Virus record (IMG/VR): IMGVR_UViG_3300024272_001997
Strand: one strand, 5' to 3'
Length of the DNA: 64,000 bases
From: a virus
Lineage: Duplodnaviria; Heunggongvirae; Uroviricota; Caudoviricetes
Shown: positions 2,635 through 48,794 of the stretch, one piece after another
Layout: each line of letters begins with the position of its first letter
How positions within the stretch are numbered: position 1 is the stretch's first letter
Program-made: the position numbers and the translations under genes
Notes under the pieces: model-generated
Databases searched by the model: none
Told to the model about the DNA's origin: nothing
Seen by the model: the letters and a program-made list of their open reading frames with translations, nothing else

Positions 2635-2886
2635 TTACCTCCGCTGAATACCGGTTTTGAGGATGGGTAAAGAAGGAGAACGATGGAGAACCCAGTATGC
2701 TTCATCCAGTTTCCCTTGGTTTTCCTTAGCAGTGCCGGTGATAGGATAAGTAATGCTCTGGCCTTTGTATTCGATACTGACGACGGCATACTCGGGATTG
2801 ATAGCTTCACAGATTTCAATGGATTCAATGAAGTCCATGTTGAAATCCCGTCCCGCAATACGAATGAAATTACGATAACGATTCAT
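2635..2886 (-). CDS. hypothetical protein (83 aa)
   Basis: Track ORF; C-terminus overlaps RBS of the next gene. Confidence 0.45.
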   Translation of the reverse strand: MNRYRNFIRIAGRDFNMDFIESIEICEAINPEYAVVSIEYKGQSITYPITGTAKENQGKLDEAYWVLHRSPSLPILKTGIQRR

Positions 2887-2887
2887 A

Positions 2888-3157
2888 TTAGAAACCTCCT
2901 GCGAAATTCAAACAGATGTGATGAAGGTGACGATTTTCGATCCAAGCGAAAGATACGGATGCGCCGGAATTATCGGGGTAGGGATCAACGATCTCATTCC
3001 ACTGGAAGAGAGGATCTTCATATTCCAAATTTTCAAAGTATTCTTCAACGACATGAAGGGCGTCTTTGGTATATTCTTTGGAAGACACAAGATGGTCTAC
3101 CTGCTCGCAGATGTTATATACTTCATCTTCAATAACAGACGGGGTGAAGCCTACCAT
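2888..3157 (-). CDS. hypothetical protein (89 aa), first gene of leftward operon
   Basis: Track ORF; GGAGGTAAAAGAATT-ATG RBS at 3166-3176. Confidence 0.6.
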   Translation of the reverse strand: MVGFTPSVIEDEVYNICEQVDHLVSSKEYTKDALHVVEEYFENLEYEDPLFQWNEIVDPYPDNSGASVSFAWIENRHLHHICLNFAGGF

Positions 3158-3188
3158 AATTCTTTTACCTCCTGGCGTATTATTCAGT

Positions 3189-3201
3189 CTTACTCAGTAA
3201 G
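3189..3201. promoter_or_regulatory. perfect 13-bp palindrome CTTACTCAGTAAG in 5' UTR of leftward operon (operator candidate)
   Basis: Self-complementary sequence read directly; loop too small for an RNA hairpin, so protein-binding site is more likely. Confidence 0.4.
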
Positions 3202-3293
3202 ATTTTGTATTACGCTCGGTACACGGAATTTTACTTTTCTGACGGAGCGCATTACCTTTTCTTTTACTATCTTTTCCTTTACTTTACATATAT

Positions 3294-3322
3294 ATTATAT
3301 CATAAAATTTTTACAAAATCAA
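3294..3322 (-). promoter_or_regulatory. sigma70-type promoter (class 2: TTGATT-17-TATAAT with T-rich spacer) for leftward operon
   Basis: Reverse complement reads TTGATTttgtaaaaattttatgaTATAAT. Confidence 0.5.
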
Positions 3323-3350
3323 TTAAGATACAATTAATTAGAATATAAAT

Positions 3351-3390
3351 GTAATACGTTGTAATACAGTGTAGGACAACGTAATACAAT
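3351..3390 (+). promoter_or_regulatory. three direct GTAATAC repeats (plus inverted copy at 3207-3213) overlapping putative rightward promoter TTGTAA-17-TAATAC; operator candidate
   Basis: TGTAATACGtTGTAATACAgtgtaggacaACGTAATACA; outer copies form an imperfect inverted repeat. Confidence 0.45.
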
Positions 3391-3431
3391 TTTTCTTTCC
3401 TAATTTTCAATAATCATACGGAGGTGATTAT

Positions 3432-3569
3432 ATGACCGTTATTACTGTAAGACTTGATGATATTGAAAAGCAATTATTACAGCAATATGCAGAAGATGAA
3501 GATCTATCTGTGTCATAGATTATAAGACGTCTAATAAAAGAATTTTTAGACGAGAAAGTTAGAAACTAA
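3432..3569 (+). CDS. ribbon-helix-helix (CopG/Arc/MetJ-like) DNA-binding protein, 45 aa, with in-frame TAG at 3516-3518
   Basis: GGAGGTG RBS 7 nt upstream; MTVITVRLDDIEKQLLQQYAEDEDLSVS[TAG]IIRRLIKEFLDEKVRN matches beta-strand/helix1/helix2 of the RHH fold; TAG falls where RHH proteins have E/Q (xSxS-E/Q-xIRxxI). Confidence 0.6.
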
Positions 3570-3584
3570 AAAGGAGCTTGTGAA

Positions 3585-3764
3585 ATGCCAAATTCAAAAG
3601 TAAAAATTGTATACTCTTTAAGAATCCATATTGGTTTACAACAATTAGGATTTTCTTATATAACAGAAATGAAGAATCCCAAGAATCCGCATCTGAATTG
3701 TTGGGTGTATCAAGAGACTCCCGCACTTCTGAAAGCGTTTGACTCCTTGGTAAAGGAGGGGTAA
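3585..3764 (+). CDS. hypothetical protein (59 aa)
   Basis: AAGGAG RBS 8 nt upstream of ATG; codon walk gives 60 codons ending TAA at 3762-3764; below the ORF-track length cut-off. Confidence 0.5.
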   Translation: MPNSKVKIVYSLRIHIGLQQLGFSYITEMKNPKNPHLNCWVYQETPALLKAFDSLVKEG

Positions 3765-4153
3765 TGATGAGCGCTATTGAAACATTTGTGGTTCACAAAG
3801 AATGGTTAGATAGTATTGCTGGATTACCCTGTGAGACTCAGGATAGAATCATTGCGGAGTTCGTTCGATATGGCTGTGGACTGGACCCTGCGCACCCTGA
3901 GGACGCAATCGCGCAGTCTTTTGTGAATATTTTGAAAAATAGAATTGATTATAGTAAGGATCAATATGCAAAGAAAGTTGCAATGGGAAAAACTGCTGGG
4001 GCTAAGAAGAAAATTGATGACAGACAAATTTATGAGTTGGCGCAAGAAGGAAAAACTGCAACTGAAATTGCAACAATTTTGAATATATCTAAATCTTCTG
4101 TTGACCACAGTGATGGTTGGAGAAAGAGAAGAGAAAACGAATTTGTATTTTGA
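3764..4153 (+). CDS. helix-turn-helix DNA-binding protein (129 aa)
   Basis: Track ORF; AAAGGAGGGG RBS; C-terminal segment IYELAQEGKTATEIATILNISKSSV resembles sigma region 4 / LuxR-type HTH. Confidence 0.65.
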   Translation: MMSAIETFVVHKEWLDSIAGLPCETQDRIIAEFVRYGCGLDPAHPEDAIAQSFVNILKNRIDYSKDQYAKKVAMGKTAGAKKKIDDRQIYELAQEGKTATEIATILNISKSSVDHSDGWRKRRENEFVF

Positions 4154-4154
4154 T

Positions 4155-4313
4155 TTGCAAAATTTGTTGCAAAGTTGCAAAAATTGTAACAATATATTCG
4201 TGCAAAGTTTGCATTTTGCATTGCATTGTACAAATCTAACTTATAACTTACAAATGCAACAATTTTGCAAATTGAATTGCAATTTTGCAACTTAATTTTT
4301 GCAATAAATTGCA
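4155..4313. repeat. array of at least 9 perfect and about 6 variant TTGCAA palindromic hexamers at roughly 9-12 bp spacing (iteron array)
   Basis: Perfect copies start near 4155, 4167, 4175, 4265, 4276, 4285, 4297, 4308; variants TTGTAA, TTGCAT, ATGCAA between; lies immediately after the HTH gene stop. Confidence 0.8.
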
Positions 4314-4322
4314 AAAATTTTA

Positions 4323-4344
4323 GGGGACCCCTCCGGGGATCCCC
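4323..4344. other. GC-rich hairpin GGGGACCCCtccGGGGATCCCC (9-bp GC stem, one bulge)
   Basis: Read from sequence; not followed by a U-tract on either strand. Confidence 0.4.
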
Positions 4345-4366
4345 ATCATAAAGGAGATAATGGAGA

Positions 4367-4594
4367 ATGATATATCAAAGACCGAAAGGTAATGTAAGAT
4401 TTGCTTATGGTAGATTTGATGATTTACCATATGGAGCCGAAGAAGTAAAGATATTTATGGTACCTGGGGATCCAGTATTATATGTAGTACCAATTGGAGA
4501 TATTCCATATGCGTATGAGAAAAATGAACCAGAAATTCCAATGTCAGATAGGCAGTGTGAGGAGTTATTGGATTATTTTAGAGAGTACGTATAA
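4367..4594 (+). CDS. hypothetical protein (75 aa)
   Basis: Track ORF; AAGGAG at 4351-4356. Confidence 0.55.
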   Translation: MIYQRPKGNVRFAYGRFDDLPYGAEEVKIFMVPGDPVLYVVPIGDIPYAYEKNEPEIPMSDRQCEELLDYFREYV

Positions 4595-4601
4595 TCTTTA
4601 T

Positions 4602-4630
4602 TTGATTTTATAAAAAAATATTGTTATAAT
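4602..4630 (+). promoter_or_regulatory. sigma70-type promoter TTGATT-17-TATAAT
   Basis: TTGATTttataaaaaaatattgtTATAAT; a second candidate (TTGGAT-16-TATAAT) lies at 4568-4595. Confidence 0.45.
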
Positions 4631-4665
4631 TATTATAGTATAAAAGAAAAGGTGGAAAAGGTTAT

Positions 4666-4830
4666 ATGATGCTTGTAGATGAAGGTTATCTTCATGACAA
4701 TACTATCGTGCGCATCGGGGAAGAGATGGGAATCTTTAGAAAACCCGATGAAAGCAAAGTAGAATATGTCATGAGGGTCATTCAAGAACTTCAATTCAAA
4801 AAGCCCTATGTAGGGGTATTCAAAAAATGA
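4666..4830 (+). CDS. hypothetical protein (54 aa)
   Basis: AAAAGGTGGAAAAGG RBS; 55 codons to TGA at 4828-4830; below ORF-track cut-off. Confidence 0.4.
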   Translation: MMLVDEGYLHDNTIVRIGEEMGIFRKPDESKVEYVMRVIQELQFKKPYVGVFKK

Positions 4831-4887
4831 ATTGAAAAAATGAAATGAAAACCGAGGAACAAAATAAAAAATGAAATGAAAATCCGA
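4822..4887 (+). repeat. three tandem copies of AAAAAATGAA(A/T)TGAAAA (start-stop mini-ORFs) in leader of 4905 gene
   Basis: Copies at about 4822, 4835, 4866; last two extend to ...AAAA(C/T)CCGA. Confidence 0.5.
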
Positions 4888-4904
4888 TTGAAAGGAAAAG
4901 TAAA

Positions 4905-5360
4905 ATGGTTTTTAGCTATAATAATTTAATGTCTGCCGCAAAGTCTGGTCAGAGACTTGGTAAGTGGAAGGATTTGCCGGTCTTTTCTTGTGATAGAATG
5001 GGACTGGCGCAAAAAGGCAATGGTGCTTATTATGTCGTCTATGATGATGACAATGCTTTCGTGAAGAAGAGCGGTTCTATGTGGTTCAGATTTGGTTATC
5101 TGGATAAGGAAGGCTCTGTTCATGAGGACACTAAGCGAGAATATTTCCCCATCCGCACAGAGAAGGACAAGGAAGTCTTCTATTATAATGAGAAGAAAGC
5201 TACAGTGGAGTTTGCGCCTGTACCGACCGTACATACTACTGCTTCTTCTGGAACTACGACTGCGGATGTGAAACTGGAGATTGACGTTGAGGGAACCTTG
5301 AAGAAGGCGAGGGAAATGACTATTGAAGATTTGCTCGCAGGATTCAACTACGGACTCTAA
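4905..5360 (+). CDS. hypothetical protein (151 aa)
   Basis: Track ORF, GAAAGGAAAAG RBS. Confidence 0.6.
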   Translation: MVFSYNNLMSAAKSGQRLGKWKDLPVFSCDRMGLAQKGNGAYYVVYDDDNAFVKKSGSMWFRFGYLDKEGSVHEDTKREYFPIRTEKDKEVFYYNEKKATVEFAPVPTVHTTASSGTTTADVKLEIDVEGTLKKAREMTIEDLLAGFNYGL

Positions 5361-5453
5361 GTGGACTCGCTTCTGGAATAAAGTATTTCCGATCGTTGAG
5401 TGGTTAGAAGATTTGGGGGAGCTTATTGTGCTCTTGGATGATATATTTGATTA

Positions 5454-5479
5454 AGGAGGACTTCGGTCCTCCTTTTTTT
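5454..5479 (+). terminator. rho-independent terminator
   Basis: AGGAGGActtcgGTCCTCCT followed by TTTTTTT. Confidence 0.7.
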
Positions 5480-5571
5480 GTTGCTTTTGGAAGAGAATTG
5501 TGAGATTGTTCTGGCCGATCGGCCCCTGGACTATCCGATCGCTTTTCCTCGTCACCGTTACCGTTGGGGCA

Positions 5572-5606
5572 TAAAAAAATCCACCCTCATTTTCAGAGGG
5601 TGGGTT
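5572..5606 (-). terminator. rho-independent terminator for gene 5693..6160
   Basis: Minus strand reads CCCACCCTctgaaaatGAGGGTGG followed by ATTTTTTT. Confidence 0.65.
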
Positions 5607-5692
5607 CTAAAATTATCTTAGCGTAGCTCTTCTCTTGGTAGTTGTAGCTTAGTCAGAAATCATCTTATGAGAATTTCTTCACAACGAGAATC

Positions 5693-6160
5693 TTACTTCA
5701 TAATTTGAGCCAAAAATTCCTTTAGAGCTTCATCATCGCTCTTGGCGTGAATGGTGGCGGAACGCTTCTTAGGATTTAGACCAACCAGCTTATCCTCGGG
5801 GATAGCATCGATTGCGGTCTTCAGTTCCTTCATTGCGCCCATCAGGGCGAAAGTCTGATCCAGGGCCTCAACCAGAGTGTCCAGGTCATCGTCAGTGATT
5901 TCCATCTCATCCATGGCGGTGTTGCCAGTCAGATCAGCGTAATCACGGAACAGGTCGACCATCTTCAGACCCAGATCCTTTTTCTTTGCGGCCAGCTCCA
6001 CCTTGGCGACACGCTCTGCCTCGGCCTTACGGGCGGCCTCCTGCTCAGCACAGAAGTCAGACATTGCGGCGTTCATGGCATCTGCCATGGCCTGACCAAT
6101 TGCATTGATATCCTGACCATTGCGCAACTGGTCCAGGAAATAGTTCTTATCATAAACCAT
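5693..6160 (-). CDS. hypothetical coiled-coil protein (155 aa)
   Basis: Track ORF trimmed to Met with GAGGT RBS (MVYDKNYF...); the upstream Met lies inside the promoter. Confidence 0.6.
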   Translation of the reverse strand: MVYDKNYFLDQLRNGQDINAIGQAMADAMNAAMSDFCAEQEAARKAEAERVAKVELAAKKKDLGLKMVDLFRDYADLTGNTAMDEMEITDDDLDTLVEALDQTFALMGAMKELKTAIDAIPEDKLVGLNPKKRSATIHAKSDDEALKEFLAQIMK

Positions 6161-6197
6161 TGGTATATACCTCACATTTCTTATTTATTGTACTTAT

Positions 6198-6226
6198 ATT
6201 ATATCAAAAAATTTTATAAAAATCAA
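6198..6226 (-). promoter_or_regulatory. sigma70-type promoter class 2 (TTGATT-17-TATAAT, spacer tttataaaattttttga)
   Basis: Read on reverse complement. Confidence 0.5.
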
Positions 6227-6242
6227 ATCCGATCGGCGCTTT

Positions 6243-6273
6243 CTGCGTTCTCCGAACGCAGATTGGATTTTTT
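6243..6273 (+). terminator. hairpin CTGCGTTCtccGAACGCAG followed by attggaTTTTTT; overlaps candidate plus promoter TTGGAT-18-TATAAT (6264-6293)
   Basis: Read from sequence. Confidence 0.35.
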
Positions 6274-6299
6274 ATAAAAAAAATGTTATAATAAAAAAA

Positions 6300-6500
6300 A
6301 AGAACATTTTTACCGATCGGGACTTTCAATTCAATGTTTCGCCATATGAGAATTCCCGATCGGCCCTCCGGGGTGGGGTGCTAGATTTCGGGAGAACGGG
6401 GCATATGCGGAAGTCGCTAGAAGTAGCAGAAAAATTCCATATGGGGTATACCGATCGGAAAATCGGGCCCTGACCTCCGTTCAGGGCCCGTTGAACCACA
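6300..6500. ncRNA. ORF-less GC-rich segment apparently transcribed from both strands (minus class-1 promoter at 6506-6534, plus promoter at 6264-6293); contains CCGATCGG motifs and a 9-bp GC hairpin at 6467-6490
   Basis: No plausible ORF (6326..6517 begins inside the -10 element); hairpin GGGCCCTGAcctccgTTCAGGGCCC; CATATGG repeated. Confidence 0.3.
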
Positions 6501-6505
6501 CCCTT

Positions 6506-6534
6506 ATTATACCACAAGTCGAGGTATTTGTCAA
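6506..6534 (-). promoter_or_regulatory. class-1 consensus promoter TTGACA-17-TATAAT with no ORF downstream
   Basis: Reverse complement GGGGTTGACAaatacctcgacttgtggTATAATAAGGG. Confidence 0.6.
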
Positions 6535-6938: not shown

Positions 6939-7015
6939 TTTGTTTTCCTCCTTGTTTGATTTTCTTTATTATACCATGTCGGGGGGCATTTGTCAAGCCC
7001 CCCGACAACTTTTTT

Positions 7016-7609: not shown

Positions 7610-7656
7610 GGGTATCAATTCCTCTCTCATTTGATGTACTCATTATAGCATAGGAT

Positions 7657-7833
7657 TTAGAGTTTGTCAAGTACTTTTTTAGAAAATTCTGTGTATTCAA
7701 TACACATTTTCAAAGTATCTTTTTCAACTGTCACACGCACAGAACTAACAAGGGGATTTTGTATCATCAGTTCGCCGGCCATTTTCTTGACCTCTGAATA
7801 GGGGATACCCTTACCAATTTCAATTCTAGCCAT
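7657..7833 (-). CDS. hypothetical protein (58 aa)
   Basis: Track ORF trimmed to Met with GGAGGG RBS. Confidence 0.45.
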   Translation of the reverse strand: MARIEIGKGIPYSEVKKMAGELMIQNPLVSSVRVTVEKDTLKMCIEYTEFSKKVLDKL

Positions 7834-8149: not shown

Positions 8150-8236
8150 CCGGCCCGCGCGCACGTAAAGGGCCGGCCGAAATTTGTGCAAATTGCACAA
8201 AAACGAAGAAAAACCGGGATTTTTCCCGGTTTTTCT
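8150..8236 (+). ncRNA. degenerate copy of GC-hairpin/terminator cassette
   Basis: Hairpin CCGGCCC-13nt-GGGCCGG then GCCGAAATTTGTGCAAATTGCACAAAAA then bidirectional terminator AAACCGGGAtttttCCCGGTTT; upstream promoter degenerate. Confidence 0.25.
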
Positions 8237-8603
8237 AACTTTTTGCCTTTCTTTTTGCGATTAAAGTCAATTCGTAGGCATTTTCACCAATTTTGAAGCT
8301 AATTTGACGAGTTTTGTTGGTGATTTCCACTGAAACGTAGCCTTTTTCCGCTAAAAAGTGGGCGATTTCCGCAATTACAGCCTCTTTTTCCGGATTTTCG
8401 GTGGGTTTTCGTGCGGATTTGGTGGTTTTTGGCGATTTTGTGTCCGCATTAGCGTTTTTCATAGCCAGTTTGTGTGCTTCTGGACTCAAATCAAAGTCCA
8501 TTTGCTCTCCCCTGTCGATGCATTTATCATCGGCAAGAATGGCTTCGGCTTCGCTTCTGGAACACTTGAGAGAACGCATGATGCGTTCGATTTGGCTATC
8601 CAT
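8235..8603 (-). CDS. hypothetical protein (122 aa), paralog of 11293..11649; TAG is its stop codon
   Basis: Track ORF; shares N-terminal SR(S/E)EAIxLxD(D/E)DKxIDRGE motif with its paralog; stop codon TAG at 8235-8237 followed by the terminator. Confidence 0.6.
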   Translation of the reverse strand: MDSQIERIMRSLKCSRSEAEAILADDKCIDRGEQMDFDLSPEAHKLAMKNANADTKSPKTTKSARKPTENPEKEAVIAEIAHFLAEKGYVSVEITNKTRQISFKIGENAYELTLIAKRKAKS

Positions 8604-22567: not shown

Positions 22568-23620
22568 ATGTTGAAATTAGATTATACTTTAGAATCTCCA
22601 GAAGAGAGAAGAGAATTGGTTGAAAAAATTCTAGCTGAAACCCCTAATCCCTCAGAGGCGTATCTAGAAACTTTAGCTGATTATCTAGTTCTCTGTATGG
22701 AGAAACAAGAGAAAAAGGAGCGCAAACTATTAACTGATAACCGTATGGCTACAGTCAATAAGCGAGAAACTTCTTATGAAGGTCTTGTTTCCCAGCTAGA
22801 GAATGGCGAAGACGGCATTTATAATATGATAACTAATAATAAGAATACGATTTTCCAGCCAAAAGTAATGATAACTAAACAAGATGTAGAAGAAATACCC
22901 GGTATGTAGCAATTGCGCGACGCCATCAAAATGTGGGAAACAAAATTAAAGAGTGCCTCCGGGCGAGAAGCATTTATTATTAAGAGTACAATTATTGAAT
23001 TGCGAAAAGATCAATATGTTTTGAAGAACGCTTATCGTAAACCAATTGTACCAACTAAAATCACTCGTTCAAGACACGATATTCCTTTAGATGATGATTT
23101 CTGGTTTGATGACGAAGGCTATATTGTTCCAGAGGGTGTTTCTTTATGTAATCCAAAAGTAGTCTCAGCAATTCTTTGTAACTACTCCTTATGTAAACAA
23201 GAAAGTTGGGGAGAGTTTGAAAAAGATTTATGGTACTTGATGGATGACTTTGACAGAGTTGCGGATGCTGCTTTGAAAAATTATCCATTGTATGAACGAA
23301 TTGTTGAGTATAAAATTGATGGATTACAAAATATTGATATTCAAGAAAAAATCCAAATGGAGTTTGGGATCAAGCATAGTTTGGAATATATCTCAAGTTT
23401 ATGGCGTAATAAAATTCCAAAGATCATTGCGTCCGAGGCGGAAGATAGACTCTTAAATTGGTACTTCATGAATGAAATGAAGGGCAAATACAAAAAGTGC
23501 AGTCGTTGCGGGCAAGTCAAATTAGCTCACAATAAATACTTTAGTAAAAATAAGACAAGCCGAGATGGTTTTTATAGCATTTGCAAATGCTGTAGAAATG
23601 CGAAGGCCAAAAGCGTGTAA
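22568..23620 (+). CDS. hypothetical protein (350 aa) with C-terminal Cys4 zinc finger; one in-frame TAG at 22907-22909
   Basis: Track ORFs 22568..22909 and 22913..23620 are in the same frame, separated only by TAG; ends CSRCGQ...CKCCRN. Confidence 0.55.
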
Positions 23621-38557: not shown

Positions 38558-38562
38558 AATTT

Positions 38563-38592
38563 GACTCGCTCAAATTTTTTTGATATAATATA
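38563..38592 (+). promoter_or_regulatory. class-2 promoter TTGACT-17-TATAAT
   Basis: TTGACTcgctcaaatttttttgaTATAAT, near-identical to 48727-48756. Confidence 0.5.
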
Positions 38593-38619
38593 TAAAAAGA
38601 GATAAAGGAGTGTTTATAA

Positions 38620-39283: not shown

Positions 39284-42200
39284 ATGGCTAAACAGTTAAA
39301 TGTAGATTTGCGATTTACGGCAAGTAATACACAAGCTAAACAGCAAATCCAAGATTTACAAAGTGCTTTAAATAATTTAATGACTACTGCAAGTAAAAAT
39401 ACCACAGGCCTTGGTATTACTAAAGATATAGCTTAGGCAACTAATGAAGTCGCTAAATTATAGGCAATGTTAGAGTCTTCTAAAAATGCATCTGGTGGTT
39501 TAGATTTAGGTAAATTTAATCAGAGCTTAAGTTAGGGACAAACAAAAATTTCTGATTATGCCAGAACTCTAAGTTCTTTAGGTCCATAGGGAGATCAAGC
39601 TTTTGCTAAATTAGCAAAAGCAATTATTAACGCTGAAGTTCCTTTAAAAAGAACAAATAGTGTATTAAAAGAATTTAAAACTTCTCTTATGAATACTGCT
39701 AGATGGCAATTGTCTTCTAGTATGTTACATGGTTTTATGGGAGCGGTACAATCTGCCTATGGTTACGCGCAAGATTTAAATGAATCTTTAAATAATATTC
39801 GTATTGTTACTGGAGCAAATATTGATGAAATGTCACGATTTGCAAAAGAAGCTAATGCGGCAGCTTAGGCTTTAAGCACAACTACTACAGAATATACTAA
39901 CGCTTCTTTGATTTTTTATCAATAGGGTTTAAGTGATGAAGAAGTTGCCAAGAGAACAGAAGTAACTGTAAAAATGGCAAATGCCGCAGGTGAAAGTGCT
40001 TAGAAAATTTCTGATCAATTAACTGCTGTTTGGAATAACTTCTATGACGGTTCCAAATCTTTGGAATATTATGCTGATGTTATGACTGCTCTTGGTGCAG
40101 CAACTGCATCTAGTACTGATGAAATTGCAGGCGGTTTAGAAAAGTTTGCGGCAATTGGTTAGACTATTGGTTTAAGTTATGAATATGCTGCTTCTGCATT
40201 AGCAACTATTACTTCTAACACTCGTCAAAGTGAAGAAGTTGTTGGTACTGCATTAAAAACTATTTTTGCACGTATTCAAGGTTTAAATTTAGGTGAAACT
40301 CTTGAAGATGGAACTTCTTTAAATAAATATTCAGAAGCTTTATCAAAAATTGGAATTAGCATTTTTGAGTAGAATGGCGAAATCAAAAAGATGGATAACA
40401 TTCTAAATGAAATGGCTGAAAAATGGGGAACTTTAGCGAAGGATCAACAAATTGCTTTAGCATAGACTGTTGCTGGCGTTCGTCAATATACTTAGCTAAT
40501 TGCTTTAATGGATAACTGGAATGCTGGAGATTCTGATAGTATGACAGCTAACTTAAATACTGCTTATAATGCCACTGGCACTTTACAAGAACAAGCAGAT
40601 ATTTATGCAGAATCTTGGGAAGCTGCAAAAGATAGAGTTACTGCAGCGGCAGAAGAAATTTATAACCAATTATTGAACGATGAATTTTTTATTGATTTAA
40701 ATAATGGTTTTGCAGGTTTCTTAAATATTATCTCTGATACTATCGACACTCTTGGTGGATTACCTGGAGTACTTACTGTTGCATCTAGCCTCATGATTAA
40801 AATGTTTGGTAAAGATATGGCAAAAGCGATTGATGATTGGGGATATAATATTAAATTGCGCTCTAAAGAGGGCGTTTAGTCTTTAATGGAGCTTAGAGAG
40901 CAAGCAAAAAATTCTTTAAAAACAATGTATGCAGATAATGTAGACACTGGTCCTATAAATTCTGCATCTCAAATTGCTTTCAGTGAATATGCTTCTTTAA
41001 CAGATGTAGTATTAGCAAAACAAAAAGAATTAACTGCTCAAGGTTAGATGCTTTCAGAAGAAAATCAAAAGCAAGTTCAATATTTATTACAAGCAAATGA
41101 AGCATATGGAGAGCAAGCAATTCTTGCTGCAAAATCTTTAGAGGCAGCTGAACAGTAGACTCGAGAAAATGAGATGCAATTAAGATATGCTGTTTAGAAG
41201 CAAAATACAAAAAATCCTGAAGACAAAAAAGTTGATTTTAAAACAACTTTAAAACCTCAGATTGATGAAGCTCAAAAAGCTTAGATGTAGTATTCTTCTT
41301 TGTATGATGTTTTTTTGAAATTAAAACAATTACAAAATAAAGGTTTAGATAGTGCAACAATAATTAAAGAACTGACTGAAATGAGTAATTAGGCTAAAGC
41401 GGCAGGCCTTGATATTTCACATTTTGATGCCATTTTACACTCTTTAAATAACGGAGATAGCGTAGTAGTTACTTTAAATGCAATTGAAAGCAATTTAGAT
41501 GATCTTGCATTGGAAGCTTTAAATACTGCAGAAACTGTTAAAAATTCTTTAACTGGAATGGGAATGGATGGCACTCAAGTTGATGCAATTCTTGATTAGT
41601 TAATTGAATCTTGGAGACAGCAAGGTATTGTTACTGCGGATTTAGCAGAAAAATTAAAAAATATAAAAGTTAATGGAGATGCTGCGGCAGAAGCTATTAG
41701 TGGAATGCAAGGTCCTCCACCAACTGTCGGCCAGAAATTTATGGCAGTTGCAAATACAATTAGTAATATTGCTATGAGTATTAATGTAGTAAAAGGATTA
41801 ATTGATACTTGGAATAATGAAGATATGAGTTTTGGAGAGAAATTACTTTCCACTTTTACATCTCTTGGAATGGTTATTCCAATGGTTACAACTGCTTTTA
41901 CTGGAAACAATCTTGCAATGTTAGGTAGTGTTTCTTCTTCTATTGTTGCAGCAGCAGGTTTTGATGGTGTTGCTATTTCTGCAAAAGTTGCTGCAGGTGG
42001 TGTTGGAGCATTGTGGGCAGCTTTATGGCCTATTGCATTAGTAGTTGCAGGCTTGACGTTAGTAATTACTGCATTAGCAGCTGGAGTAAAATATTTATCT
42101 GATGAATATAATAAAGATGCTATTGCTGCTAACAAAGCTGCTGAAGCAGCAAATAATTTGAAAGAAGCATATGAAGAAACTAAGAAATCTTATGAAGATA

Positions 42201-45200
42201 TGATTTCTGCTATGGAAAATTATCAAAGTGCTAGAGACAGTCTTGATAATTTAACTAAGGGTACTGAAGCATATCGAGATGCCTTAAACGGAGCGAATGA
42301 AGCAGCTTTACAATTAATTAAAGCTGGTAATTTGATTCGTGGAGAAGATTACGATATTGTCGGTGGAGAAATCATTATTAAACAAGAATCAATTGATGCG
42401 GCTAAAGAAAATCAATATGGAAAAGTTCAAGAAGCATATGCTGCAAGTACAATGGCAAATGCAAATGCTAGTCGTTTAAAAGCTGAGGCAGATCAAACTA
42501 AACTTACTCGAACTGATGATAAATCTATTTGGTAGGGCGTAGTTGAAGGTATGGTCACAGGAATGGCTGCAATGATGATTACTGGTAATGCTCCAGCAGT
42601 TTTAGCAGGTGCATTAACGGGTGGAGTTGTTGGAGCTATTGATACTGCTCTTATAAATAAAGCTAGTAATGAAGCACAACAAAAACAAATTGATGATTTA
42701 GTAGCTCTTTATGATGAAATGGGAGAAGCTGCTTTTGATTCTGTAGAACTTCAAAAATTAGGCATTGATACTGCTAATGAAGAATATATTAATTCTTTAA
42801 AAGAAATTGTTCGTGCTACCCATCAGGCTGCAGAAGAAATGGAAGTCGCCGCTGAGTTAGCCGCAACCTCTATTTTGAGTCAAGATGAGCGTTTTGCAAA
42901 GTCTCAAGATAGTGAAGAATTATATGCAGCAAGTGGAGAAATATATAATAAATTATATCAAGATAATTTAAAAAAATATCAAGAAGTTGATATTGCCAAT
43001 TGGGTAGGAGCTGGAACTGAAGATGCTAAAGATTTATGGAATAAATATTTAGAGGCTTCTGGCTTAGACGAACTAAGAGGAATTAAAGCCACCAATTTTA
43101 GAAAAGATAATACTGTTGACTATGAGTATTATGATGAAGAGGGTAAGAAGCAAGAAGCTAATGTTGATTTGGCTACAATGGCTGCGGCAGTTGCAGCTGC
43201 AGAAGCAAATAATTTATTAGCTGATTCAGCAAATGTATTACTAGGAATATTTAATGAATTAAATAATTCTGGTAATGAAGCTGCTTAGGCATTAAAAAAT
43301 ATTATCGCTTATGAAAATGTTGAAAAATCAACTAGAGCTGAGTTTGATGATTTAAAAAATGAATATGAATCAGCAGAAGATAAAACTGCTTATTTAAATG
43401 AAGCTTTTGGTGGTGCTGATGGTGTTATTGATGAAGCTGAATTAAAGGCTTTGGGGTATGATTCCATAGAAGCTTTATAGGCAGGAATTGAATAGGCCAT
43501 TGAAGATGGTGAAGATGCTTGGGATGATGTTGGTAAACATTTAACTAGCACTGCAAAAAAAGCATTTAAAAATTCTATGGATTCTGGTATTTTTGATGAT
43601 TTGACTTTAGAACAAACTAATCAAATGGCAGATCTCTTCCAAGATGCTTTCGCCAAGGGTGGAGTTGAAGGTTTAGATTCTCTATAGAATAGTTTAAATG
43701 TAATGTTTGAGAAGTCTGGTCAAGATGCTGGAAAAATGGCTGCAATCTTAGCAAATGTTGATTGGCAAACTACTAATATTGAAGATTTAACTGCAATTTT
43801 AGAAGACGCAGGCATTGAAACTGATGGTTTTGCTAATGAGCTAGAAAACTTAATAGACTTAATGCAAGAGGGTCAAAACATTGGTTTTGACGGTGCGGCC
43901 GATATTTATAAAACTGCTCATGAGATTATTGATGATCTTAAAACTGGAGATACTATTTCTAGTGAAGATTATGATAATCTTAAAACTATGGGCATTAATA
44001 TGTCTGACTATTTTGTTCAAATGGCAGATGGGTCTTATAAATTAACTGCTGATGCAAAAGAATTCTATGATGTTGTTAATGCTAAAACTTTAGAACAATT
44101 CCAAAATAATATTGACGCTTTACGCGGTCAAAAAGCAGATGTAAATAATTTACAAAATAGTACCTATGATAAGGATTCTATTGCTACAATGGATACTAAT
44201 ATGATAGGTATGATTAAACAAGATAATGATAAATTAGGAGATCAATTAACTTTCTTAAAAGCAATTGGTTCTGATTTAGAAAATCTTGATAGCTATATTC
44301 AAGAGATTGAAGCTGGTAGACAATTAACCCAACGTCAATTAAGAGAAATTCGCAACGAACTTGAAGAAAATGCTTGGCAATGGGATAATTTATCTCAAGT
44401 AACTGAAGGGTTTGATGCAGAAATCCAACGTAATATGGATGCATATGCTATGTCTGCAACTACAGTTGGAGATTTAAATGATATGCTTCGCGAAGGATTA
44501 ATTAATGCTGAAGCATATAATAAAGCAATTGAATCCGTAATGGATGTGGAATTTGAGGCTGAAGGGTTAGATGTAGAAGCCGCTAATGATGTAGCAGATG
44601 CTTTCCGTGAAATGGCAGATGCTGGTGAAGCAGGCACAGAAGCTTTAAAAGACAATGAAGAAGCTGTTAAAGATGCTACTGTTCGTTATATGGAACTTAA
44701 CGAAGCTATTACTGATATTTATGATAATTATGATGATTATATAGATGTTTTAAAAGCAGCAAGAAAAGCTTCAACTCCTTTAGAAAAAGCTAACCTATTA
44801 AATGAAAAATCTGCTAGATCTTTAAGAACTTCTTTGGCAGGTTTGCTTGGCACTACAGAAGATTTAATTGATGCAGATTTAATGGCAGCAATTAATCCAG
44901 CAGATTTCGAAGCAGCTGCAAACGGTAGTGTTGAAGCTATTGATAGAATTAGAGAGGCTTTTATAAAATTATAGATTGAAGGTATTGATGGAATTACACT
45001 TGATGGCTTAATGGCTGAATTAAATGCATTTAATGATGGTGCTTATATTGATTTAGACAATATGCCAATGCTATGGTCTTTAATTGAAGCAAAGGTTGCC
45101 GCAGGTGCAACTGCAGCTGACATTGAAGCTTTGTTAAGTGGTTTGAACATCGATGCTGATGTTAGTGATTTCTATGGTACGATGGAAGAAATGGCAGCTA

Positions 45201-48200
45201 TTGCAGAGCAAGCTGGTTCTCGTGTAGTACAAGCTACTTCTTTCTCTCAAACATCAACGACTGAAACTGAAGCTACTCCACGTACAGTTGATAATGTAAA
45301 TTTCACTGAAACTGTTACAACTACTAATCATCCGTCTATTGCGGCAGTGCCTATGACAAATGGTTTTGGACCATTAATTTATGGTACTAATATGGTTAGT
45401 TATTAGAAGTCTGTAAGTGTTGATCCAGTAAGTTATCAAACTCAAGATACTGCAACTGCTACTGAAGTTGTCACTGAGAACGCTGCGGGTGAAGAAGGTA
45501 AAGTTCGTGGTATTTAGATAAATGGTGCTCATAAAGCTCCAACTGCTTCTAGAACTCCAAGTCCAACTAATACAACCAGAAAACCTGTATCATCAGGCAG
45601 TGGCGGTGGTGGTAGTAGTGGTAGTAAAGCAAAAGAACCTTCTAAACCAAAATAGATGGATACCACTAAACAAACTGATGTAGTAAAAAGATATAAAGAA
45701 ATTGATGATGCGCTTGATGATTTATCTGATGAATATGATAGAGCTTCTAAATCTGCAGATAGATTATGGGGCGAACATCGTTTAGATGCTCTTCGTGAAC
45801 AAAATGCTTTAATTGAAGAGTAGCAAGAATTGTTAGCTGAAAAATAGCGTCAAGCAGAACGCTATATGAAACAAGATCAAGTTGCTTTACAATAGGCTGC
45901 AGCTGCAGCGGGATTAGCCTTCTCATTTGATGATAAAGGTAATATTACTAATTACACTGACTAGATGACTGTCCTTTATAATCAGTTAGCTGCCGCAGAA
46001 TCTCGTTACAATTCTCTTGCTACTGGTGAAGCTCAAGAGTCTTATGAAGAAACTATTCTTGACCCTCTAAAAAATAAGATCCAAAACATTGAAGATGCAA
46101 TGGAGTTATACGAAGAGAGTAAAGAATTATTTGAAGAATTGGGTATTAACATTGAAGATCTTCAAGATTAGATTATGCAAAATAATTATGATATTATAAT
46201 GGACGGTTTAGAGCTTCATATTGGTTTTAATGAAGAAGATTTAGAAATAATTAATTATTATTTATCTAAGATTGAAGATGATTTTTATTCTATGGCTGAA
46301 GCTGCTGCTTTAATAGCAAATCCAAAAGGAAATAGTCAATTGACTGAGTATATTTCTAATTTAGAAGAATATGAATCTTCTCTTCAAGGATTAAATAAAG
46401 CTTATGTCGCAGGAGAAATTACTGAAGCAATGTATCAAGAAGGCTTAGAAGAAGTCCGTTCTGGTATTAGAGATAATTTAAGTTCTTTAGTTGAATTAGA
46501 TAATACTATGAAAGAGTATTATAGTAAAACTCTAAATATGGCCTAGGAAGAATTAGCGAAGTATACTGACCGTATGGAGCATCAAACTGAAGTTCTAGAA
46601 CATTATCAATCTTTAATGGAAATTCTTGGCAAAGAAACTGACTATAACGGTTTAGGAATTATTCTTGAAGGTCAAGCAAAAACTATTGAAAATCAAATGA
46701 AGGTTGCTAAAGAAGCATATGCTATGTATCAATCTGAAGCAGATGAAAAGAAGAAATTGCTTGATTAGGCTATTGCCACAGGAAATACTGAAGCTGCAGA
46801 AGTATATCAGAAAGAATGGGAAGCTGCTAATGCTGCTGCCATGGAAGCTCAACAAGATATGCTTGATAAAACTGAAGAGTGGGCTGATGCATTACGAGCA
46901 ATACTGGAGAATAAACTATCTGGTTTCGCTCAAAATTTAGAGAACGCTCTGACCGGAGGCACATCTTTTGATACTTTAACTACTTCTATGGAGCGAGCAG
47001 CTAGTCTACAAGAAGAATATTTAACAACGACTAACCAAATTTATGAGACTAATAAGTTGATGCGCGTTGCACAGCAAGCTATTGATAATTCCACTAGTAG
47101 TATTGCAAAGCAAAAACTAAAAGGATTTATTAATGAAACTAAGCAATTGCAAGATCAAACAAAGTTAAGTAAATACGAGTTAGAAATTCAGCAAGCAAAA
47201 TATAATTTATTATTGGCTGAGATGGCTCTAGAAGATGCTCGTGATGCGAAAACTGTTGTTAGATTAAAGCGTGATAATGAAGGCAATCTTGGTTATGTAT
47301 ATACCGCAGATCAAGATAAGTTGGCCGAAGCGCAACAAGAGTTAGAAGACGCACAAAATAGTTTATATAATATTGGATTGGAAGGCGCTAATGAATATAG
47401 TGAAAAGTATCAGCAAACCATGAGTGAAATGTATGATACATTTACTGAACTCCAAGAGCAGTATTTGAGTGGTGAATTCGAAACTGAAGCTGAATATCAA
47501 GATGCTATGTTAAAAGCTAAGGAATATTATTATGAAAAATTGAAGAGTTATTCTTCTCTGCATCAAATAGCATTGACTACAGATAGTCGAGTCATTGCAG
47601 ATGCTTGGTCTTCTGATTATAGCGAAATGATTTTCAATACTGAAGATTGGATGCGCGCAGTTACTGAATATGTTGGTAATGTAAATCTTGCATTTGACGA
47701 ATGGGAAGAAAATGTTGATACTATTACTAATGAGACTCTTGGACCAAATCTTGATACTCTTGAAGATAACGTTAAAGATATTACAGATGCTAATGATGCT
47801 TTAACTGATTCTATCGTAAAAGATGGCGGCGTTATTGACGCTATTGAGTCTGAATTGGATCAAGTTAGTGAATTGACTGGTAAATACGCTAATTTAAGAC
47901 AATAGATTCAGGGACTGATTGCGGATCATGAAACTCTTATGGTACGTATTGGCAATGAACCTAATCCTTACACTCCTCCTGGAACTGGTACTTCTGGAAG
48001 TTCTTCTTCTAGCGGAGGTAGTAGTGGAAGTTCTAATTCTGGTAATTCTTCTAGTGGTAGTGGTCGAGGTTCTAGTACAGCAAGCACATCTTCTGGAACT
48101 AGTACTAAAGAAGCAAGTGCTCCAGAATATAGTGACACTACTAAGCAAGGAGTTGCTCTCGCAATTTGGAATGGTGGTTTTGGTTGGGGTAACGGTACTA

Positions 48201-48673
48201 CCCGCCGCAACCGGTTGGATGAAAAAGGATTTGATCCCGAAGAAATCCAGCGTATTGTTGATATTACTAATCCTAATGGAGATTGGCGTACTCGTTATGG
48301 AATTTCTGACTTAAGTAAGTATGCTTATTCTAGTTTTGATACTGGTGGTTATACTGGAGCTTGGGGTTCTTATGGTAAGTTCGCTATGTTACATGAAAAA
48401 GAATTGATTTTGAATCCAGGTGAAACTGAAAACTTTTTAGCAAGTATGGAAGTATTGCGTAGTATTATCAAGATGATTGACTTACAAAGCACTGCTTCTC
48501 AGCTAGGTGGATTGTTACATAGTCCTGGATATTACGCTCCTCAAACTTCTGAGGTATTAGAGCAAAATGTTCATATTGAAGCTAGCTTCCCTGAAGTAAC
48601 TGATAGATATGAAATTGAAGCTGCTTTGACTTCTATCGTCAATCGTGCTTCTCAATACGCTAACCGTAAATAA
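39284..48673 (+). CDS. tape measure protein, single 9390-nt frame (3129 aa) with at least 35 in-frame TAGs
   Basis: All 10 track ORF fragments (40508, 41705, 42551, 43703, 45011, 45965, 46175, 46574, 46841, 47939) share frame 2 with the ATG at 39284; no TAA/TGA for 9.4 kb; Ala/Gln/Leu-rich helical repeats; Ser/Gly linker at about 47990-48110 then a globular C-terminal domain. Confidence 0.8.
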
Positions 48674-48679
48674 ATTTTT

Positions 48680-48713
48680 GGGTAGGTTGTAGAAATACAA
48701 CCTACCCTTTTTC
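48680..48713 (+). terminator. rho-independent terminator after tape measure
   Basis: GGGTAGGTTGTagaaaTACAACCTACCC followed by TTTTTC. Confidence 0.7.
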
Positions 48714-48726
48714 TTATTTGGTCTAA

Positions 48727-48756
48727 TATAAAAAATTGACTTTTCTAAATTTTTAT
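48727..48756 (+). promoter_or_regulatory. class-2 promoter TTGACT-17-TATAAT
   Basis: TTGACTtttctaaatttttatgaTATAAT then AGAGAGAAAGGAG leader. Confidence 0.5.
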
Positions 48757-48794
48757 GATATAATAGATTATAAGAGAGAAAGGAGATATTGGTT

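Follow-up and report, generated by a model that had tools for sequence, protein, structure and literature searches.

We analyzed a 64,000-nucleotide stretch of DNA (the window) from a virus of the class Caudoviricetes, IMG/VR record IMGVR_UViG_3300024272_001997, at the locus where its rightward operon begins (Table 1). The first gene of this operon encodes a 45-residue ribbon-helix-helix (RHH) regulator of the Arc/CopG type and contains an in-frame TAG. The open reading frame (ORF) starts with ATG at 3432, carries the TAG as codon 29, and ends with TAA as codon 46 at 3567-3569; it reads ATG ... TCA TAG ATT ... AAC TAA, and its product is MTVITVRLDDIEKQLLQQYAEDEDLSVS[TAG]IIRRLIKEFLDEKVRN. Under the standard code the same ORF encodes only 28 amino acids. 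The gene is preceded by a Shine-Dalgarno sequence that is kept in all aligned relatives, and a 274-bp gap separates it from a divergent 89-aa gene. The core of this gap (3272-3325) is near-invariant across lineages and holds a leftward promoter. An earlier note on this DNA, made without database searches (the original prediction), had described an ORF with an ideal ribosome-binding site and a TAG at codon 29, both of which are read directly from the sequence.

Table 1. Features of the RHH locus and of the recoded late block, in window coordinates
Feature	Position	Strand	Basis
RHH gene, 45 codons, Arc/CopG-type regulator, TAG read as Gln	3432-3569	+	Pfam, PHROG, AlphaFold2, Foldseek
In-frame TAG (codon 29) in the first turn of helix 2, decoded as Gln	3516-3518	+	Alignment column, codons of relatives
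Shine-Dalgarno sequence GGAGGTGA, 7 nt 5' of the ATG	3420-3427	+	Read from sequence
Candidate operator array O_R: TGTAATACg, TGTAATACA, TGTAGGACA, cGTAATACA	3350-3388	+	Exact 10-bp spacing
Candidate operator array O_L: GTAATAC, GTAAGAC 20 nt on, ATAATAC 10 nt on	3177-3213	-	Phased heptads
Leftward sigma-70-type promoter TTGATT-17-TATAAT with TG extension	3294-3322	-	Promoter scan, 10/12 matches
89-aa gene that opens the divergent leftward (early-class) block	2888-3157	-	ORF, strong ribosome-binding site
Second gene of the rightward operon, 59 aa	3585-3764	+	Own Shine-Dalgarno sequence; syntenic in all relatives
Third gene of the operon, 129 aa, N-terminal DUF6291 domain and C-terminal helix-turn-helix (HTH)	3764-4153	+	Pfam
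Sigma-factor-like protein, first late-block gene, TAG at codon 114 (22907)	22568-23620	+	phrog_5767, E 1.7e-51
Tape-measure protein, 3,129 aa, 36 in-frame TAGs	39284-48673	+	Pfam PhageMin_Tail

Scored with Gln placed at the TAG codon, the RHH protein exceeded the Pfam cut-offs for DUF6290 (39.7 bits versus 27, covering profile positions 1-41 of 72), RHH_1 (30.2 bits versus 20.5, profile positions 2-38 of 39), and RHH_9 (24.4 bits versus 23.4), and it matched the PHROG families "transcriptional repressor" and "Arc-like repressor." The 28-aa fragment was borderline for DUF6290 (28.4 bits) and did not match RHH_1. Shuffling the 17 C-terminal amino acids nine times gave 27.6-33.0 bits for DUF6290 and at most 17.6 bits for RHH_1. 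The real 3' part outscores these shuffles; therefore, the sequence after the TAG contributes specifically to the RHH match.

An AlphaFold2 model based on a 77-sequence alignment reached a mean confidence score (pLDDT) of 94.2, with residues 1-9 extended and helices at residues 10-22 and 27-42. Among the top 50 Foldseek matches in the PDB, nearly all were RHH proteins. The best was the antitoxin CopA_SO (6iya; template-modeling (TM) score 0.88, root-mean-square deviation 1.1 Å), and further matches included StnY, PutA, ORF56, CopG (2cpg), and Arc (1par). The Pfam thresholds, the model, and the structural matches confirm the CopG/Arc strand/helix/helix pattern recognized in the original prediction, and both the profiles and the fold match helix 2 in the part downstream of the TAG. 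The prediction had placed the TAG exactly between the two helices. Its position near the helix boundary was right, but because helix 2 of the model spans residues 27-42, the TAG lies in the first turn of that helix. Termination at this codon would yield, as anticipated, a 28-residue peptide lacking helix 2.

In its size of ~45 aa and its strand-helix-helix fold, the phage protein resembles the classical RHH repressors, namely Arc and Mnt of P22, CopG of pMV158, and the omega repressor of pSM19035. Foldseek TM scores of the model against 2cpg, 1par, and 1bdv were 0.72-0.84, whereas sequence identity to these repressors is only 19-28%, and their genes, unlike the phage RHH gene, contain no internal stop codon. 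The best sequence-profile match was to the N-terminal RHH domains of DUF6290 and RelB-family antitoxins, which have in common with the phage protein the helix 2 start "SxSQ(V/I)(I/V)R." Together with the structural best match, which is the DNA-binding domain of an antitoxin, this could indicate that the RHH protein and the product of the 59-aa ORF form a type II toxin-antitoxin pair, as antitoxin and toxin, respectively. We regard this as highly improbable. The match to the NCBIfam RelB-family antitoxin model (NF046040) reached 32 bits against a cut-off of 50 and covered 36 of 69 positions, in the N-terminal RHH part only. The 45-aa protein lacks the C-terminal toxin-neutralizing tail of these antitoxins, no toxin partner was found, and the 59-aa ORF matched no family, of toxins or otherwise, in Pfam, PHROGs, or NCBIfam. 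The module moreover lies at a phage divergent promoter region, with an HTH gene next to it.

Homologues of the 45-aa protein occur on more than 200 contigs. A word-indexed search retrieved the identical protein from 162 contigs of up to 210 kb, together with close variants; the identical and close proteins on record had been called with TAG translated as Gln. We read the DNA of 12 independent metagenome contigs from two sub-lineages (L001-L006 and L007-L012), and codon 29 was TAG in all 12. Because the same codon is found in these 12 contigs and the identical protein on 162, the TAG is not an assembly error. Substitutions 3' of the TAG were mostly synonymous and otherwise conservative. In standard-code relatives, codon 29 is CAG (L015, L024, and L025), CAA (L014), or TGG (L013 and L016), and all of these genes stop at the same TAA.

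An exhaustive HMMER search extended the family to 75 representative clusters, mostly stand-alone proteins of 42-50 aa. Alignment position 29 (n = 77) was occupied by Gln in 71 sequences, Trp in 5, and His in 1, with the caveat that some of the aligned Gln residues may be TAGs translated by a code-15 gene caller. This position is among the five best-conserved columns, and Arg-32 is invariant. The original prediction had named homologues ending at the equivalent position as an observation that would speak against it; none of the 77 members ends at position 28, and all have at least 12 residues beyond it. These data show that codon 29 is a sense codon for the near-invariant Gln of the family and that the gene is real and intact.

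That the TAG is instead a true stop, leaving a 28-aa peptide or a pseudogene whose 16 downstream codons are conserved for some other reason, would agree with the standard-code annotation of the Joint Genome Institute (JGI), which calls the 28-aa ORF (P0019) on 16 contigs, and with the presence of at least one early gene in the same phage that ends in TAG (see below). In view of the alignment we consider it very unlikely. The downstream part adds ~10 bits to the DUF6290 match and more than 12 bits to the RHH_1 match over shuffles, its changes preserve the protein and the TAA is kept at the same place, and AlphaFold2 gives a confident model of the readthrough product. Neither a terminator nor RNA structure was found 3' of the TAG (folding of 3505-3600, z = 0.02 versus shuffles).

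The IMG/VR database contained seven loci from four further lineages with a TAG at the same Ser-Gln-Val-Ile-Arg position, several of them with a second TAG, and two loci with CAA at codon 29 and a TAG at another codon of the RHH gene. In all, at least six lineages have in-frame TAGs in the RHH gene, and three of its codons are affected. The neighboring genes of relatives show the same feature: homologues of the 59-aa ORF carry one to three in-frame TAGs each in L214, L215, and L216, and the DUF6291/HTH orthologue of L216 carries three. Because the RHH, 59-aa, and DUF6291/HTH genes of relatives all contain TAGs, the module is generally written in the phage's own code. Scans of IMG/VR with the 3' half of the RHH gene and with the DUF6291 protein gave no match, nor did a blastn search of 2800-6300 against GenBank phages.

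The TAGs of the P0001 and P0015 lineages were considered as a case of independent conservation and rejected, as the two have 96% identity over the 3' half of the gene and share the TAG by descent. Trp (5 of 77) is the only common alternative to Gln at residue 29, and Arg is never found there; the members with Trp are scattered among nearest neighbors that carry Gln. A change from CAG to TGG requires two steps, for which TAG is a viable intermediate solely in suppressor-carrying phages. The scattered alternation of Gln and Trp in the absence of Arg may therefore record repeated passages through TAG.

Recoding of TAG is not confined to the RHH gene. ORFs of up to 3,129 aa, the longest being the tape-measure gene, are open only when TAG is read as sense. 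On the JGI contig L018, annotated with the standard code, the late genes from the tail end of the tape-measure gene onward are split into many short ORFs. A gene census based on strand-constrained gene calling counted 89 in-frame TAGs against 449 CAA/CAG codons (16.5%) in the late plus-strand block (22.5-64 kb), distributed over 15 of its 26 genes. This block encodes the sigma-like protein, terminase, portal, capsid, and tail proteins, and the terminase, portal, and tape-measure genes are among those with TAGs. The two leftward blocks, comprising ~50 genes, contain 163 CAA/CAG codons and no credible sense TAG. Opposite 27 TAG sites of late genes, standard-code members of the clade have Gln in 135 of 246 residues (55%), compared with a background of 4.4%. 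Late genes end in TAA (25) or TGA (1) and never in TAG. In the sigma-like gene, we found two to seven in-frame stops in every TAG-recoded IMG/VR relative and none in any standard-code relative.

An early gene uses TAG in the opposite sense. The 122-aa gene at 8238-8603 (-) ends at a TAG (8237) that is followed immediately by a 13-bp terminator hairpin with a T-run (8207-8237) and by the promoter of the next gene. The "readthrough" tail past this codon is junk that carries indels between strains, although code-15 callers extend the gene through it to 179-186 aa. TAG 8237 is thus almost certainly a true stop. Use of TAG as a stop in an early gene and as a sense codon in late genes fits a temporal switch of the code, and neither code 11 nor code 15 alone annotates this genome correctly; standard-code pipelines shorten the RHH regulator to 28 aa.

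The virus is a TAG-to-Gln (code 15) siphophage of ~150-210 kb from gut metagenomes, whose host is probably a member of the Firmicutes or Clostridia. Many IMG/VR contigs of 170-200 kb share 70-92% capsid-protein identity with it, some recoded and some in the standard code. The closest named relative is phAss-1 ("Phassvirus"; PMC10607447, GenBank OQ749652), which belongs to a described "code 15 clade" and has a tape-measure protein of ~3,150 aa and tRNA-Sup-CTA genes. Its portal protein is 39% identical to that of the window; the clade of the window, at ~150-210 kb, is larger than phAss-1, and homologues of the RHH, DUF6291, and sigma-like genes were not detected in phAss-1 at 1-50 kb and 86-136 kb. 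As in other code-15 gut phages, the TAGs are concentrated in late structural genes and align with Gln, the early genes are compatible with the standard code, a tRNA(CUA) is phage-encoded, and the large siphovirus genome encodes a tape-measure protein of ~3,100 aa. Stop-codon recoding in such phages has been validated by proteomics (Peters et al., PMC9523058).

Decoding of TAG 29 is therefore part of a genome-wide code-15 recoding and not a device specific to this gene. A programmed readthrough that gives two products, with an early 28-aa peptide that is active or poisons dimers and a later 45-aa repressor, has some logic, since UAG termination in a standard-code cell would yield the short peptide, and a mosaic breakpoint lies near the TAG (see below). 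We nevertheless give this explanation little credence. Besides the genome-wide decoding, no stimulatory RNA structure follows the TAG. Relatives with CAG or TGG at codon 29 are unable to make the short form. As established for the folding of Arc and CopG, the hydrophobic core is missing from an RHH half that lacks helix 2. RNA folding around the RHH start codon was no better than that of shuffles.

The closest IMG/VR relative (88% capsid identity, recoded) carries an array of ten tRNA genes, two of them tRNA(CUA) genes in tandem, found by pattern search and ARAGORN. A homology search with a small protein adjoining these genes led us to the sister contig ERZ28654221 scaffold_226 (153,341 bp), which carries locus L001 and encodes an identical RHH protein, TAG included. 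ARAGORN identified nine tRNAs on this contig, one of them a tRNA(CUA) at L230:6926-7000, ~35 kb left of the RHH gene and oriented as the leftward genes. One or two tRNA(CUA) genes are also present in the relatives L168 and L222-L226. The occurrence of tRNA(CUA) on a contig with the same RHH protein indicates that the full-length protein depends on the phage suppressor tRNA, in agreement with the original prediction that it can be made only by decoding the TAG. A scan of 10 kb on either side of the RHH gene in nine relatives found no tRNA, L013 having only Asn and Lys tRNAs.

The suppressor and the phage tRNA-Gln genes have in common U1, a weak 1:72 pair, and G73. These are identity elements for glutaminyl-tRNA synthetase in E. 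coli, and these features of the suppressor are consistent with charging by Gln, although they do not prove it. Other members of the sister array are Leu(UAA), Thr(UGU), Ser(UGA), and Gly(UCC) tRNAs, which decode the A-ending codons favored in late genes. Homing-endonuclease-type genes (GIY-YIG and PD-(D/E)XK) are interspersed in the array. Immediately 5' of the tRNA(CUA), L230:6747-6925 contains an apparent tRNA 3' half (T-arm and acceptor end) and the 5' half of another tRNA, neither of which is called by ARAGORN; these may be split or decayed tRNA genes.

Codon usage and TAG content place the RHH gene in the late, recoded class, although it lies beside genes of the early type. The G+C content at third codon positions (GC3) was 0.557 ± 0.112 (minimum 0.34) in early genes and 0.274 ± 0.092 in late genes. 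The RHH gene has a GC3 of 0.20, the lowest in the first 22 kb, and the RHH operon a mean of 0.35, whereas the divergent 89-aa gene, which is syntenic in relatives, has a GC3 of 0.45 and no TAG. The two classes also differ in the TTA share of Leu codons (5-8% in early leftward genes and 49% in late genes) and in the ratio of TAA to TGA stops (~1:1 in early genes and 25:1 in late genes). Along the window, the codon classes split sharply between 1-22400 and 22500-64000.

The gap between the RHH gene and the 89-aa gene contains two candidate operator arrays built from heptads of the GTAATAC/GTAGGAC kind. O_R lies 44 nt 5' of the RHH start codon and comprises a direct-repeat family (D1) and an inverted repeat (I1), with four heptads within 3351-3387 (+). 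O_L lies directly next to the first leftward gene's ribosome-binding site, with a match to the two-heptad pattern at 3177-3193 (-), and the inverted repeats I2, I4, I6, I9, and I10 connect it with O_R. The two-heptad pattern occurs six times in the window against 0.37 expected, and five of the six occurrences fall in the RHH intergenic region. The GTAATAC repeats noted in the original prediction at the divergent control region are thus real and non-random.

The heptads vary with the RHH lineage, being GTAAGAC/GTAGGAC in L013, two copies of GTCGGAC in L024, and GTATTAC/GTAATAT/GTAATAC in L007, and an (A/C)GGACAA motif recurs beside distant RHH orthologues. RHH proteins act as obligate dimers that place a two-stranded sheet in the major groove at repeated operator sites, a mode of action to which the co-varying phased heptads point indirectly. 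Short repeated operator units on one DNA face that adjoin or overlap promoters are known from the classical RHH repressors. The arc and mnt genes of the P22 immI region also adjoin a divergent promoter region. The candidate operator unit of the phage, TGTnnnACA at a 10-bp phase, to which we suppose the RHH protein binds, sets it apart from the classical operators.

When the P0001 and P0015 lineages are compared, nucleotide identity rises from 68% over the operators to 74% over the 5' part of the gene, which encodes the strand and helix 1, and to 96% from the TAG onward. A mosaic breakpoint therefore lies inside the 138-bp RHH gene, near the TAG (3432-3569 versus L007:10001-10141). The steep change in identity shows that a cassette consisting of the DNA-reading head and its operators has been exchanged. 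At L221:1179-2300, a divergent 219-aa winged-helix-like gene, accompanied by four copies of TATAGGTGTCTAAAATTTTAACA, takes the place of the RHH cassette, although the YunG-like and 89-aa genes of this locus are 88% identical to those of the window. This locus, the only one obtained from an IMG/VR scan with the YunG-like protein, indicates that the regulatory module at this position is exchangeable. The heptads, their co-variation with the RHH lineage, the cassette exchange, and the replacement in L221 argue, at the level of sequence, that the RHH protein acts on this region.

Based on these results, we think it fairly probable that the gene encodes an RHH repressor whose TAG is translated as Gln by the phage tRNA(CUA) and which most likely binds the heptads to repress or autoregulate the divergent promoters after the code switch. 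The early genes, which are TAG-free, GC-rich at third positions, and preceded by consensus sigma-70 promoters, would be translatable by a standard-code host. Before the suppressor is available, translation of the RHH gene would terminate at codon 29 and release an inactive 28-residue fragment unable to form an RHH dimer. When the phage then expresses its tRNA array, which includes tRNA(CUA), the late-class messages, namely those of the structural genes, the sigma-like gene, and the RHH gene, would become translatable. The full-length RHH dimer would then most likely occupy the 10-bp-phased TGTnnnACA heptads that flank the divergent promoter region, and in the bound state it could bring about repression or autoregulation of both operons, the leftward one and its own. 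We infer DNA binding to the repeats, repression, and the timing function from the features described above. The mechanism is an ordinary one for a code-15 phage, drawing on known recoding and introducing no new principle.

The situation resembles that of laboratory amber mutants grown on supE hosts, in which a functional protein needs a Gln-inserting tRNA(CUA) and an inactive truncated fragment is made otherwise. Here, however, both the amber codon and the suppressor are natural to the phage genome, and the amber codon persists stably on more than 200 contigs from metagenomes. Borges et al. (bioRxiv 10.1101/2021.08.26.457843) have proposed a model in which stop-codon recoding acts as a post-transcriptional regulator in code 15 gut phages. 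Use of the TAG dependence as a genetic switch, which the original prediction had put forward as a coupling to suppressor-tRNA availability, is plausible as an instance of that hypothesis. The code-15 papers that we consulted discuss lysis, structural, and integrase genes, and the RHH gene differs from these in encoding a regulator. In a limited search, we found no description of a transcriptional repressor whose gene is recoded and lies at an early promoter region.

Extended sigma-70 promoters (TTGACA-17-TGnTATAAT) precede many small early genes as well as late operons. Perfect or near-perfect copies lie at 6506-6534, 6968-6996, and 7642-7670 (-) and at 38558-38619 and 48674-48788 (+), and a consensus TTGACA-17-TGgTATAAT promoter precedes the sigma-like gene. 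As the late operons have consensus promoters, unmodified host RNA polymerase may transcribe the late genes, which would then be held back at translation.

Several observations weigh against a repressor timed by the code switch. The late operons share consensus sigma-70 promoters with the early genes, and the proposed order of events thus rests on codon class. No canonical sigma-70 promoter was detected for the rightward operon by the promoter scan; by eye, a weak TTAAGA/TTGAGA-15-TATAAA lies at 3323-3349. ARAGORN found no tRNA and Rfam no RNA family in the window, the suppressor being seen on the contig of the sister strain. The TAG is dispensable, as sister lineages have CAG, CAA, or TGG, and may be neutral. 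It occupies one of the four Gln positions of the RHH gene, which does not exceed the expectation for the late class, and the TAGs of the P0001 and P0015 lineages were inherited once, given the near-identical 3' half common to both.

The dispensability, the frequency, and the single inheritance of the TAG also favor a neutral history, in which the repressor is real and the TAG is read as Gln but drifted from CAG without selection, in a gene whose expression coincides with the suppressor anyway, and carries no timing information. The alternation of recoded and standard-code genomes within the clade is in line with this view. The zero sense TAGs against 163 CAA/CAG codons in the early genes speak otherwise, as they show that the codon class is under selection in this genome, and so do the recurrence of TAGs in a 45-codon gene and the placement of this TAG where termination destroys the fold. 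We hold neutral recoding to be possible but doubtful. Because the TAG is dispensable and its frequency drift-like, an adaptive timer is nevertheless only moderately likely, and neutral recoding is a serious rival to it.

A stronger form of the timed repressor can be offered only tentatively. The RHH protein could be a built-in sensor of the genetic-code switch, becoming active only after tRNA(CUA) accumulates, given that the TAG occupies the place of the Gln that opens helix 2, and then shutting off the divergent early promoters, while the sigma-like protein that heads the late block would become translatable at the same moment. If this were true, stop-codon recoding would time transcription programs through recoded regulators, besides blocking late proteins. 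Why phages recode stop codons and when the host-to-phage code switch takes place are unsettled questions. The locus offers a compact test system, consisting of a 45-aa repressor, ~250 bp of promoter/operator DNA, and one tRNA(CUA) gene, and with these parts the idea of recoding as a post-transcriptional timer is directly testable.

The third gene of the operon encodes a 129-aa protein whose DUF6291 domain scored 35.5 bits in Pfam (cut-off 27.2) and whose residues 81-114 gave sub-threshold matches to Sigma70_r4_2 and HTH_7. Directly 3' of this gene, at 4154-4315, nine exact copies of TTGCAAA and further TTGCAA/TGCAA variants are packed into ~160 bp. The array is iteron-like; it is possibly bound by the HTH protein or may be an origin. 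It is followed by a GC-rich hairpin at 4323-4344.

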